A DNA stretch of 64,000 nt from Candidatus Cloacimonetes bacterium HGW-Cloacimonetes-1 (GTDB lineage: Bacteria > Cloacimonadota > Cloacimonadia > Cloacimonadales > Cloacimonadaceae): positions 33,695-97,694 of the forward strand of contig PHBQ01000017.1 in the NCBI GenBank assembly GCA_002841975.1, given 5' to 3'. Made by a program: the position numbers and the translations under genes. Shown here one piece after another: positions 1 through 3,390 of this stretch. A model generated the notes under the pieces. It searched no databases. It was given only the letters and a program-made list of their open reading frames with translations, and was not told where the DNA came from. Numbering within the stretch: position 1 is the first letter of the stretch; each line of letters starts with the position of its first letter.

Positions 1-660
1 ACGGTTCCTGCCATGCCTTCCATCACTCCGATGCATGGTGCCAAGATGTTGATGGCTATGAGCAGTTATTATCCTCCCAATAACGATTGGCTGATCTCGC
101 CCGGCATGACTCTGGGCAGTAGTCCGGCAATCACTTTCAGTGCCCGCTCCTATACCGTGGCGTATGGTGCGGAGCGGCTCAAGGTTCTAATCTCTACCAC
201 AGATGCCAATCCCGGCTCTTTCACCGAGATCAGTGCAACCCCCTATATCTCCGTCCCTGCTACGTGGACAGACTATCAAATCGACCTCGGTGCTTATCAA
301 AATCAGCATGTCTATCTGGCTTTGCAATGCGTTTCATGGGACGCCTTTGCGCTCTTTTTGGATAACATTGTCATCACAGGAGCAGGTGGATCAGTGCCCG
401 TGGAAGACGATCTGATCGCCCCCCTCCGCTACAGGATCTATCCCAATCCCAGCACCTCCCACTTTCGGATTGAGACCAATGGCAAAACCGCCTTTGATCT
501 AGCTATCTACGACCTGCGTGGACGCAAGCTGGAAAGCAGCAAACAGATCACGGAGTATGAAAGCAGAAATCAAAACCTGAAGCTGAGCCCCGGACTCTAT
601 TTCTTGCGTTTGGTGCATGACGGCCGTTCTGAAACTCACAAGTTTGTAGTCGTAAAATAG
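1..660 (+). CDS. Secreted protein, C-terminal fragment (choice-of-anchor-J/MAM-like domain plus T9SS/Por C-terminal sorting domain); 5' end lies outside the window
   Basis: Frame 1 is open from nt 1, with no stop before the first Met at 13. The C-terminus (YPNPSTSHFRIETNG...LSPGLYFLRLVHDGRSETHKFVVVK) matches the pattern of Por secretion C-terminal sorting domains. The same tail type occurs in two other ORFs in this window. Confidence 0.7.
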   Translation, partial: TVPAMPSITPMHGAKMLMAMSSYYPPNNDWLISPGMTLGSSPAITFSARSYTVAYGAERLKVLISTTDANPGSFTEISATPYISVPATWTDYQIDLGAYQNQHVYLALQCVSWDAFALFLDNIVITGAGGSVPVEDDLIAPLRYRIYPNPSTSHFRIETNGKTAFDLAIYDLRGRKLESSKQITEYESRNQNLKLSPGLYFLRLVHDGRSETHKFVVVK

Positions 661-3222
661 ATGAATATCATCAGCCCCATCGAGAGCTTTATCCAGAGCG
701 TCAGCACTGATTCACGCTACGCCCCCAATATCATTGCCGATCAGGTCACAGAGGCCAAAGCAGCCACCTGGGACGATATTCCCCCCGGCATCCGTCCTGA
801 ACTCAAAACCCTACTGGGCAAACTGGGTATTTCTCGCCTCTTTAGCCACCAGACGGAAGCCATGACTGCCATTCTGAAACGACAAAATATCGTACTCAGC
901 AGTGGTGTTGCCAGCGGGAAAAGCCTCTGTTACCAGATTCCCATCCTCAACGAATTGCTAAACTTACCGGCTTCCCGCACCTTTCTTCTCTTTCCTACCA
1001 AGGCATTGGCACAAGATCAATTTGGCAAGATGAACCAAATGCTCTCCCTTTTTAAACAGGGATTACCCGCTGCTGCCAAGTTTTCCGCCGGTATTTATGA
1101 TGGAGACACGGGGACGGACTCCCGCTCCAATATTCGCAAAAACTCCTCTCTGATCTTCACGAATCCCGATATGTTGCATCTGGGAATTTTACCCAATCAC
1201 AGCCTGTGGTCGAGCTTTTTTGCCAATCTCCGCTATGTAGTATTGGACGAAGTACACATCTACCGGGGTGTCTTTGGCTCCAACGTCGCCAATATCATCC
1301 GCAGGCTTCGCCGTATCTGCCGTTTCTATGGCTCCGATCCGCAGTTCATCTGTACCTCTGCCACTCTTGCCAATTCTATTGAGCTTTCCGAAAATCTCAC
1401 GGAAACAGCGATGCTGTCTCTCACCGAGGATGGATCTCCCCACGGCAAGCGCGTTTTTTATATTCTCAATCCGCCCATGATAGATCCTCAGCTGGGGATT
1501 CGCCGTAGTGCAGTCATCGAATCCACTTCCCTGGCCAAGCGTTTCCTCAAAACCGGCTGTCAAGCCATCCTCTTTTCAGAGACGCGTCGCAACGTCGAGA
1601 TCCTGTTCCGTTATTTAATGGACAAGGCATGGGACAAAGAACGCATTCGCAGTTACCGTAGCGGTTATCTGGCAGAAGATCGCCGCCAAATCGAGAGTGA
1701 TCTGCGCGACCGCAAGATCGACATCGTGGTTTCCACCAATGCCTTGGAGCTCGGGATCGATATCGGTGGGTTGGACGCCGTATTTATCAACGGTTATCCC
1801 GGCACTATCTGTGGTACCCGCCAGCAATCCGGACGCGCCGGAAGAAAGGGCAGCACGGCGCTCACAGTCCTCGTTGCCACCGCCAACCCCCTGGATCAAT
1901 ATATCTGCAGCCATCCCGAATACCTCTTTGAAAACAGTCCGGAGCGAGCCTTGATCGATCCTGATAATCCGGAAATCCTACTCCGGCAAGTTCTCTGTGC
2001 GGTGTACGACATGGCGATGCTGGATACGGAATCATTTGGCTCACTGAGCTGTGCCCAAATCTTGCCAATCCTGCAAATGCTGATCGATGAAGGCAAGATC
2101 CGTAAAGTCGGAACCCGTTATATCGGCATTTTAGGAAAATACCCTTCCGCAGATGTTTCGATCCGCAATCTCTCGTCCCAATATAGGCTTATGAATGGAG
2201 CGGAAATGATCGGTTACGTCGATGCCGTGAGCGCAAATTGGATGACCCATCCCAATGCCATCTACCTTCATCAGGGTGATACCTGGATCGTGAATAACCT
2301 GGATCATGACCAAAAAAGAGTCGATCTGCAACCCACTGACGCAAATTATTACACCCAAGCTGCCAAAACCACGGAGATAGATCTCAATGAACTGACGCAC
2401 TCCGAAGCCATTCCCGGGGGCAAAAAATATATCGGCAAGGTCACGGTTACATCGCTCATCACCGGCTTCAAAAAGCTACGTTTTTTTACTCAGGAACTGC
2501 TCGGCATGGAAGAACTGGAGATGGCTCCCTCCATCCTGCCCACTGTCGCATGGTGGATCGCTCTCTCTCCCGCCACAGTGCAGACCGTTCGGGATCAAGG
2601 TCTGTGGCGTAATCATAACAACGACTATGGCAAAGCATGGACAGTCCTCACCCGTCTTATTCGGGAAAGAGATCAATTCCGCTGTGTCCATTGCGGAGTT
2701 ATGGAAGCAGAGCGCGCCCACGACGTTCATCACATCACGCCCTTTCGCAAGTTTGCGGATGCCGATGCTGCCAATAGTCCCGAAAACCTTGTCACACTCT
2801 GCCCCCGCTGTCATCGCATGGCAGAGTCTTCCGTCCAGATCCAGAGCGGCTTGGCAGCTGTGAGCTACCTACTGGGCAACCTTGCTCCATTTTTCGTGAT
2901 GTGCGAACAAAAAGATATCGGAGTTCATTCCGAAGATAAATCCGCTTTGGCAGATGGTAATCCTGTGATAGTGATGTATGACTCCACTCCGGGGGGGATC
3001 GGTTTATCCAAAAAGCTCTATTCCATCGAGACGGAGCTGCTCCATGCGGCAATCGATGCCGTGAGTAATTGTCCTTGTGAGGCAGGCTGTCCCTCTTGCG
3101 TGGGTCCAATTGCCGAAAACGGGGAAGGAGCCAAAGAACACGGCCTCGCCATTCTCACCGAATTGTGCAAAACTACGGTCTCCACGACTCAGATCATAGA
3201 TTTTCCGAGCCCCACTGAATAG
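661..3222 (+). CDS. DEXH-box helicase of the MrfA/YprA (DUF1998-containing) type carrying an inserted HNH nuclease motif
   Basis: 853-aa ORF. Walker A GVASGKS, DEVH box (VLDEVHIY), helicase C motifs (QQSGRAGRKG). The C-terminal Cys cluster NCPCEAGCPSC is typical of the DUF1998/MrfA Zn-binding domain. Just before it lies CVHCG...HDVHHITPF...NLVTLCPRCH, a Cys4 HNH beta-beta-alpha-Me signature. Confidence 0.85.
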   Translation: MNIISPIESFIQSVSTDSRYAPNIIADQVTEAKAATWDDIPPGIRPELKTLLGKLGISRLFSHQTEAMTAILKRQNIVLSSGVASGKSLCYQIPILNELLNLPASRTFLLFPTKALAQDQFGKMNQMLSLFKQGLPAAAKFSAGIYDGDTGTDSRSNIRKNSSLIFTNPDMLHLGILPNHSLWSSFFANLRYVVLDEVHIYRGVFGSNVANIIRRLRRICRFYGSDPQFICTSATLANSIELSENLTETAMLSLTEDGSPHGKRVFYILNPPMIDPQLGIRRSAVIESTSLAKRFLKTGCQAILFSETRRNVEILFRYLMDKAWDKERIRSYRSGYLAEDRRQIESDLRDRKIDIVVSTNALELGIDIGGLDAVFINGYPGTICGTRQQSGRAGRKGSTALTVLVATANPLDQYICSHPEYLFENSPERALIDPDNPEILLRQVLCAVYDMAMLDTESFGSLSCAQILPILQMLIDEGKIRKVGTRYIGILGKYPSADVSIRNLSSQYRLMNGAEMIGYVDAVSANWMTHPNAIYLHQGDTWIVNNLDHDQKRVDLQPTDANYYTQAAKTTEIDLNELTHSEAIPGGKKYIGKVTVTSLITGFKKLRFFTQELLGMEELEMAPSILPTVAWWIALSPATVQTVRDQGLWRNHNNDYGKAWTVLTRLIRERDQFRCVHCGVMEAERAHDVHHITPFRKFADADAANSPENLVTLCPRCHRMAESSVQIQSGLAAVSYLLGNLAPFFVMCEQKDIGVHSEDKSALADGNPVIVMYDSTPGGIGLSKKLYSIETELLHAAIDAVSNCPCEAGCPSCVGPIAENGEGAKEHGLAILTELCKTTVSTTQIIDFPSPTE

Positions 3223-3299: not shown

Positions 3300-3390
3300 C
3301 ATGTGCTTCCCTGGCGATTCCCTCGTGGCGACAAGGGCTTCACGAGGGAAGTACGAGGGCATCACCTGAGATTGGAGTTAGGAGCAAGTG
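3300..3390. repeat. Intergenic palindromic repeat, family A (cacgaggg element), copy 1
   Basis: gtgcttccctggcgattccctcgtggcgacaagggcttcacgagggaagtacgagggcatcacctgagattgg. Similar elements recur at 13268-13392, 21481-21565 (inverted), 55440-55545 and 61830-61935 (inverted). It contains the internal inverted repeat ccctcgtg...cacgaggg and lies between convergent genes. Confidence 0.75.

Follow-up and report, generated by a model that had tools for sequence, protein, structure and literature searches.

MrfAB is a recently recognised bacterial excision-repair route that runs parallel to UvrABC and whose published models name no strand-opening enzyme. In Bacillus subtilis it is formed by two proteins, the helicase MrfA (YprA; PDB 6ZNP, 6ZNQ and 6ZNS) and the exonuclease MrfB (YprB; PDB 8UN9), which act as a mitomycin C repair pair. 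MrfA unwinds DNA with 3'-5' polarity, and MrfB, a 3'-5' exonuclease, favours linear DNA and has only slight activity on nicked plasmid (Burby and Simmons). In the model of the same authors, MrfA separates the adducted strand and MrfB degrades it, with the incision enzyme left unnamed; Manthei 2024 mentions “any other unknown partners”, and a 2026 review holds that at least one factor of the pathway is still to be found. Here we describe a gene, mrfA(HNH), from Candidatus Cloacimonetes bacterium HGW-Cloacimonetes-1 (phylum Cloacimonadota), which encodes an MrfA-type helicase with an HNH domain inserted within the polypeptide. It lies in a 64,000-nucleotide stretch of contig PHBQ01000017.1 (positions 33,695 to 97,694), referred to below as the window.

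The structure of B. subtilis MrfA provides the frame for this comparison. Roske et al. (PMC7797055) divide the protein into modules named NTR, RecA1, RecA2, WH (winged helix), OB, CON (connector) and MZB, with CON at residues 557-630 and MZB at 631-749. RecA2, OB, CON and MZB form a funnel that admits the 5' side of the tracked strand, and the displaced strand was proposed to pass between MZB and RecA2. HNH is not mentioned in that paper. A census of about 52,000 YprA-like proteins by the Koonin laboratory (PMC12458937) sets a repair branch (“YprA only” and MrfAB) apart from the defence branches, and there HNH occurs only in the reference list and in one unrelated row of the supplement. A literature search for MrfA, YprA or DUF1998 together with HNH did not find the architecture described, and by that search the HNH-bearing protein appears to be a previously undescribed variant of MrfA.

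Domain architecture of the helicase

The gene and the modules of its product are laid out as follows.

661..3222, + strand: mrfA(HNH), a complete gene for an 853-residue MrfA/YprA-type superfamily 2 (SF2) DNA helicase with an inserted HNH domain (open reading frame and translation)
844..1380, + strand, residues 62-240: RecA1 (DEAD) domain (PF00270, 103 bits)
1546..1851, + strand, residues 296-397: RecA2 (Helicase_C) domain (PF00271, 62 bits)
1954..2574, + strand, residues about 432-638: winged-helix, OB and connector (CON) modules (alignment to YprA unbroken up to YprA residue 635)
2575..2844, + strand, residues 639-728: insert at the CON/MZB boundary (gap in the YprA alignment between 635 and 646)
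2683..2823, + strand, residues 675-721: HNH endonuclease core (PF01844, 36.2 bits)
2845..3165, + strand, residues 729-835: MZB (DUF1998) zinc-binding domain (PF09369, 75.8 bits over residues 735-814)

The protein is a chromosomal MrfA/YprA-type SF2 helicase with the NTR, RecA1, RecA2, WH, OB, CON and MZB architecture. Its closest relative in the PDB is B. subtilis MrfA/YprA (6znp, E 5e-169), to which it aligns from end to end, residues 14-635 of YprA pairing with residues 17-638 of the query and residues 646-749 with residues 729-834. A first-pass annotation, made from the sequence and its open reading frames, had assigned the helicase core and a C-terminal CPCEAGCPSC cluster to the DUF1998-helicase family. 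Domain mapping with Pfam agrees with this assignment: DEAD (PF00270) and Helicase_C (PF00271), both above their cut-offs, HNH (PF01844) and MZB/DUF1998 (PF09369) were all found, the cysteine cluster lies at 804-813, and WHD_HRQ1 (PF22982) matches residues 432-503 weakly. Helicase motifs I (GKS, 86-88), II (DEVH, 196-199), III (SAT, 233-235) and VI (QQSGRAGR, 388-395) are invariant among 53 homologues; in the same alignment, S85, G86, K87, D196, E197 and H199 in RecA1 and Q388, G391, R392, G394 and R395 in RecA2 are unchanged. The four cysteines of the MZB cluster, C804, C806, C810 and C813, are invariant in this alignment, in a set of 120 homologues retrieved with the C-terminal part of the protein, and in 18 deep representatives that are 34-49% identical to the query in the insert region.

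A model built with AlphaFold2 from the 53 homologues has a mean predicted local distance difference test (pLDDT) score of 87.1 and a predicted template modelling (pTM) score of 0.83, with values of pLDDT below 50 limited to a hinge at 724-727 and the C-terminal tail, and with long beta strands at 507-635. The best matches to the model in Foldseek are the MrfA crystal structures 6znp and 6znq (E 3e-76, target-normalised TM 0.80-0.82). The helicase modules and the four-Cys zinc site are the same in B. subtilis MrfA, which differs in having a linker of about 10 residues at the point of the insert. Among the models of NCBIfam, the best match is to TIGR03817 (DECH_helic, a hypothetical equivalog), which, like Mycobacterium smegmatis SftH, stands for the actinobacterial DECH-box DUF1998 helicases; positions 7-620 of the 742 in the profile match with 605.6 bits. 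This score is below the cut-off of 874.1, proteins of the family carry no HNH, and it is precisely at the insert that the match is interrupted: the query is a relative, not a member, of the TIGR03817 equivalog.

The HNH insert

Approximately 90 residues (639-728) stand where YprA has its short linker, a site that corresponds to the CON/MZB boundary as Roske et al. (PMC7797055) draw it. The insert comprises a leader helix and the conserved W649, Y656-G657 and W660, followed by R670-D671 and by the HNH fold, whose motifs CVHCG (675-679), HDVHHITPF (687-695) and NLVTLCPRCH (709-718) supply the zinc ligands C675, C678, C714 and C717 and, as catalytic-type residues, the His-His pair H690-H691, the structural Asn N709 and the last metal-binding His, H718. 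PF01844 matches residues 675-721 well above its cut-off (36.2 against 21.4 bits, E 6.6e-9), and PF13391 (HNH_2) also exceeds its own (22.2 against 21). The first-pass annotation had described a complete Cys4 HNH within the same polypeptide ahead of the DUF1998 domain, and the motifs are found where it had placed them.

C675, C678, H690, H691, N705, N709, C714, C717 and H718 are identical in all 120 homologues, as are W649, Y656, G657, W660 and R670 of the leader, while D671 is identical in 117 of the 120; PF01844 is present in the precomputed annotation of every one. In the 18 deep representatives the four cysteines, the His-His pair, N709 and H718 are all invariant, and N705 is replaced by His in two. 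When expressed as mean pairwise column identity, the insert (0.536) and its HNH core (0.558) fall among NTR plus RecA1 (0.515), RecA2 (0.567) and MZB (0.576), with WH and OB/CON lower, at 0.47.

The fold was examined both in the model and by profile comparison. The AlphaFold2 model shows a beta-beta-alpha unit in the insert, with strands at 688-691 and 710-713, a helix at 715-724 and a block pLDDT of 74-87. The low pLDDT of the hinge at 724-727 suggests that the HNH may be a mobile domain. A profile of the insert region from the 18 diverged homologues matches solved HNH nucleases, namely phage GVE2 HNH (5h0m, 7e-9), IscB (9k2z, 2e-6), McrA (6ghc, 5.5e-5) and the En domain of a group II intron maturase (6me0, 3e-4), and the match takes in both the W..R..RD leader helix and the CxxC...HH...N...CxxCH core. 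The first-pass annotation would have been undone by a lack of HNH similarity or by unconserved His and Asn residues; the similarity is present and the residues are invariant. The HNH domain is therefore confirmed as a genuine, conserved insertion with intact catalytic-type residues.

The leader helix and core are those of the small Cys4 HNH nucleases (GVE2 HNH, the HNH domains of IscB and Cas9, McrA, group II intron En), which are free-standing or lie within unrelated proteins, whereas the query HNH is embedded in MrfA. The design of a translocating helicase with a built-in nuclease that cuts the DNA being tracked has precedents in Cas3 (HD plus SF2), in Staphylococcus aureus DinG (N-terminal DEDD exonuclease) and in the CasDinG-HNH variant of type IV CRISPR, the last of which shows that fusion of an HNH to an SF2 helicase is possible (PMC12345164). 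These precedents belong to other helicase families of other polarity and carry the nuclease as a terminal fusion; in contrast, the query HNH is internal and a separate exonuclease is kept.

Distribution and phylogeny

To place the insertion in the family, 1.84 billion representatives clustered at 50% identity were scanned with HMMER, yielding 2,610 matches at E <= 1e-30. Among the best 150 of these matches, 40 (about a quarter) carry the insert at the same position as detected with a hidden Markov model of the insert; 38 of the 40 insert-bearing clusters keep the full CxxC...HH...N...CxxC[HN] pattern. Named HNH-bearing members come from Cloacimonadota, Fidelibacterota, Anaerolinea, Anaerolineales, Chloroflexota and Thermoflexus, and public records label these proteins “DEAD/DEAH box helicase”.

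Trees were built from the helicase core alone, the insert and MZB being left out. On the core tree, one HNH clade of 20 rows (support 98) contains the query together with Anaerolinea and Fidelibacterota sequences, a second (support 99) contains 17 HNH rows and three HNH-less rows, and two HNH rows stand outside both clades as stragglers. Six changes in HNH state are needed on this tree, compared with about 34 when labels are shuffled, and the starred branches of the IQ-TREE tree force only two. A single clade of all HNH rows is not rejected by the approximately unbiased (AU) test under LG+G4 (p = 0.116). These data are compatible with, but do not prove, a single ancient insertion and a few later losses.

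Other variants of the YprA family appeared in the same scan. Twelve HNH-less representatives of 930-1000 residues (P0184, P0212, P0219, P0226, P0233, P0244, P0247, P0251, P0254 and P0258-P0260) have a C-terminal extension of approximately 220-280 residues after the MZB zinc cluster; a Pfam scan of the extensions in two of these proteins, P0226 and P0184, gave no match. P0256 (1426 residues) ends in an RNase_T DEDD exonuclease and is thus a helicase-exonuclease fusion.

The MrfB partner

The genome (2.78 Mb in 128 contigs, 99% complete) contains one MZB gene, that of the window itself, and elsewhere encodes a partner of the B. subtilis type.

G000:C110:18030-19313 (L002:1174-2457), outside the window: mrfB-like gene, 427 residues, TTG start, PF13482 RNase_H_2 core with a tetratricopeptide repeat (TPR) tail

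The product matches B. subtilis MrfB (8un9) with E 1.2e-25, and its DEDDh blocks idlETTGlg, fNGktFD and HnqhDv align with those of the B. subtilis protein. As in B. subtilis, the partner is a DEDDh exonuclease with a TPR tail whose gene adjoins or overlaps mrfA in many relatives; the query's own family differs in that the two genes are unlinked.

Co-occurrence was determined by searching 151 genomes of Cloacimonadota, the window's own included, with both proteins, MrfA being counted as present when a match ran contiguously through the HNH. MrfA(HNH) was found in 97 genomes and the MrfB-like protein in 98; both were found in 96, MrfA alone in one (G128), MrfB alone in two (G074 and G145), and neither in 52. 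Since related genomes are non-independent, these counts carry no p-value. By family, the tallies for MrfA and MrfB respectively are 67/68 and 67/68 in f1 (the family of the query), 5/6 and 5/6 in f2, 11/31 and 12/31 in f4, 2/2 and 2/2 in f5, 9/9 and 9/9 in f6, and 2/6 and 2/6 in f7, with none of either in the nine remaining families. The joint presence and absence of the two genes inside f2, f4 and f7 shows that mrfA and mrfB have been lost together repeatedly.

Outside the query's family, mrfA and mrfB adjoin on the same strand in 23 of the 29 genomes with both genes (for example, G045:C1 810119-812563 and 812598-813749). In the cultured Anaerolinea thermophila, 4 nucleotides are common to the HNH-bearing mrfA and to mrfB, which overlap (L022 6001-8535 and 8532-9773). 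Two metagenomic contigs show looser arrangements: in ERZ25039515 (L023:8572-9894) an AbiEii/AbiEi toxin-antitoxin pair and a small open reading frame are inserted between the HNH-bearing mrfA and mrfB, breaking up an operon whose genes overlap elsewhere, and in a second contig the two genes are not adjacent.

The idea that HNH replaces MrfB was rejected, given the MrfB-like gene in this genome and its co-occurrence with mrfA(HNH) across the phylum. Because MrfB is retained and co-inherited, the HNH is an addition to the MrfAB pair and no substitute for the exonuclease. Segmental duplication was considered as the origin of the split operon, as mrfA and mrfB each follow a surface-protein gene of the type IX secretion system (T9SS) and these two upstream genes are paralogues; it was rejected as coincidence. 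Members of that surface-protein family are widespread in the genome (12 matching places in at least seven genes), the genes upstream of mrfA and of mrfB are only 28% identical, and the one upstream of mrfB is conserved in one of five relatives.

Gene neighbourhood and the question of defence

Directly upstream of mrfA(HNH), window positions 1-660 (+ strand) encode the C-terminal portion of a surface protein with a T9SS sorting tail (Por_Secre_tail); this gene stops at the base that immediately precedes the mrfA start codon. A T9SS-tail surface-protein gene occupies the same position in 10 of 11 relatives. Downstream lie a lipoprotein gene and a gene for a 2584-residue surface protein. Just past the mrfA stop codon, at window positions 3300-3390, a palindromic intergenic element (“Family A” of the first-pass annotation) lies between convergent genes.

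mrfA(HNH) is single-copy; 67 of the 68 genomes in its family have it, with identities of 51-65%. Phage records contained no match to the protein, and plasmid records only distant relatives below 60% identity, the best at 40%. PADLOC models for DruE, BrxHI and DrmA match parts of the helicase core only, and the NCBIfam model for ZorE gives a weak match to the HNH region, with 32 bits where the cut-off is 600. No defence partner genes (methylases, DrmB/DrmC, DruH and others) were seen among the neighbours of mrfA. The SF2 core and the OB-CON-DUF1998 arrangement are common to the query and to DISARM DrmA/DrmB, Druantia DruE, ARMADA and Dpd DpdJ, which are also nuclease-associated; however, these defence-branch systems have their nucleases (PLD and others) fused at the C-terminus or encoded separately, and none is an HNH placed between CON and MZB (PMC12458937), and the query has only partial PADLOC matches, with a housekeeping-type context and phyletic pattern instead. 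By best match, the protein falls in the repair branch of the YprA family. Its distribution and synteny, and the outcome of searching phage and plasmid records, led us to reject a defence island or mobile element as the setting of the gene. The genome also has uvrB and uvrC, so MrfAB supplements the canonical excision-repair pathway here, as it does in Bacillus.

The first-pass annotation had supposed that helicase and nuclease functions are combined in one protein, which would be either a self-contained repair enzyme or a single-gene helicase-nuclease of defence type. The domain reading stands, in that a DEXH helicase and a complete Cys4 HNH with conserved catalytic-type residues share one polypeptide, whereas neither functional conclusion was borne out. 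An MrfB-type exonuclease in the same genome, co-inherited across the sample and often adjacent, speaks against self-containment; the single-copy distribution, the conserved upstream synteny, the lack of phage matches and the absence of defence neighbours speak against a defence protein.

Two further helicase observations belong to this part of the analysis. In two genomes of the family, a second YprA-like frame of 1550-1592 residues occurs besides mrfA(HNH) (G059:C4:72719-74593 and G038:C30:67144-69015); these frames are 35-36% identical over residues 18-642 and may be defence-branch YprA helicases. In two relatives (L012:4115-5158 and L014:3864-5084) another SF2 helicase frame, approximately 24% identical to residues 45-494, is found immediately downstream of mrfA(HNH).

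A proposed role in MrfAB repair

We consider it somewhat probable that these genes form an MrfAB excision-repair system alongside UvrABC, in which the helicase carries its own nicking HNH nuclease and cooperates with an MrfB encoded elsewhere in the genome. The architecture, the conservation of the HNH, the co-inheritance and the housekeeping-type distribution are seen directly, and from them we infer the nuclease activity, nicking as opposed to double-strand cutting, the choice of strand and the kind of lesion. More specifically, and as a tentative proposal, the HNH may be the incision nuclease of a two-protein excision-repair machine independent of UvrABC, with MrfA as helicase and endonuclease and MrfB as exonuclease.

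HNH nucleases normally cleave a single strand with each active site, leaving a 3'-OH, and this holds for several of the nearest solved ones (GVE2 HNH, IscB, McrA, group II intron En). The insert is tethered where the first MZB helix starts; at its other end this helix bears K751, which the alignment to YprA pairs with the Asn that touches the 5'-terminal nucleotide. The position of the entry funnel of MrfA, the chemistry of HNH and its tether at MZB led us to propose that the HNH nicks at the junction. In this scheme, the helicase would engage or stall at damaged DNA, and the HNH, which would sit on flexible linkers at the edge of the funnel that takes in the DNA, would nick one strand at or just ahead of the single-strand/duplex junction. 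From the 3'-OH end of the nick, MrfA would then unwind the damaged strand and MrfB would degrade it.

Several observations weigh against this proposal. MrfAB systems lacking HNH, such as that of B. subtilis, work, so the pathway as such can do without an HNH, and the role in mitomycin C repair is established only in Bacillus. In the present genome mrfA and mrfB are unlinked, and they are adjacent in none of the 66 genomes of the family that have both, which leaves no operon evidence locally. Finally, P0155, a representative cluster of 855 residues, still has the insert, but two of the His positions, one in the His-His pair and the last one, are occupied by Tyr (HVYH..., CGACY), and the protein scores below the Pfam HNH threshold. 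Its insert is apparently a decayed nuclease domain, from which it would follow that the domain can persist without catalytic residues and that the module may also have a non-catalytic role. As to the helicase itself, 3'-5' DNA helicase activity is known for B. subtilis MrfA and M. smegmatis SftH only.

The P0155 lineage, with its two His to Tyr replacements, would be in keeping with the HNH being mainly a non-catalytic zinc- and DNA-binding module, recognising lesions or junctions or stabilising the MZB “drum” without any cutting. The Cys4 zinc site and W649, Y656, G657 and W660 of the leader are conserved as strongly as the catalytic-type residues, which fits the same explanation, and the zinc domain of MrfA has been speculated to recognise lesions (Burby and Simmons). 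Nevertheless, invariance of H690, H691, N709 and H718 in 120/120 homologues and 18/18 deep representatives would be needless for a purely structural role, and the full motif persists in 38 of the 40 HNH-bearing clusters, which makes a module of this kind distinctly unlikely. A catalytic HNH could also serve a wider purpose, with the protein acting as a general helicase-nuclease on stalled forks, flaps, R-loops or recombination intermediates, its HNH cutting branched DNA and MrfB still cooperating. The same architecture evidence applies here as to repair incision, the lesion type is not readable from sequence, and distant MrfAB homologues fail to complement B. subtilis and were judged to have diverged in function (Burby and Simmons). 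Nothing specific speaks against this possibility, which differs from repair incision in substrate only, and the coupling to MrfB fits excision and resection equally and so does not discriminate between the two; we regard the wider role as unlikely, while giving it serious consideration.

The partial PADLOC matches to the helicase core and the weak ZorE match to the HNH region would be accommodated by a single-gene anti-phage or anti-plasmid helicase-nuclease, comparable to the DISARM, Druantia, ARMADA and Dpd branches. We give this very little credence: repair MrfA is by far the best match, the gene is near-universal and single-copy in its family, its presence follows lineage and MrfB, its upstream neighbour is conserved, the genes around it encode surface proteins instead of methylases or defence partners, phage matches are absent and plasmid matches distant, and the “YprA only” and MrfAB forms sit in the repair branch of the Koonin-laboratory tree (PMC12458937). 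Least credible of all is a selfish insertion derived from a homing endonuclease and tolerated in frame without host function, although the nearest solved relative, 5h0m, comes from a phage and a group II intron En domain matches too. HNH genes are indeed frequent mobile elements. The insertion site is fixed, however, the insert equals the RecA domains in conservation among proteins that share 44-65% identity, its key residues remain invariant in the deep representatives, and HNH forms cluster strongly on the core-only tree, on which a single clade is not rejected. The fixed site, the conservation and the clustering together indicate long vertical co-evolution of insert and helicase.

Implications

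The HNH-bearing MrfA proteins, currently annotated as nothing more than a DEAD/DEAH box helicase, make up a large, old subfamily in Cloacimonadota, Chloroflexota and Fidelibacterota in which MrfB is retained, and they offer a concrete candidate for the missing incision step. The pairing of mrfA and mrfB persists in one whole family despite a split operon, and co-inheritance is near-perfect across the phylum sample. For biochemistry and structural work, a possible compact helicase-nickase is at hand, for example from the cultured Anaerolinea thermophila. If the HNH is the incision nuclease, it would supply the “unknown factor” of MrfAB for the HNH-bearing lineages, and HNH-less systems such as that of B. 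subtilis would recruit a separate, yet-to-be-found endonuclease.

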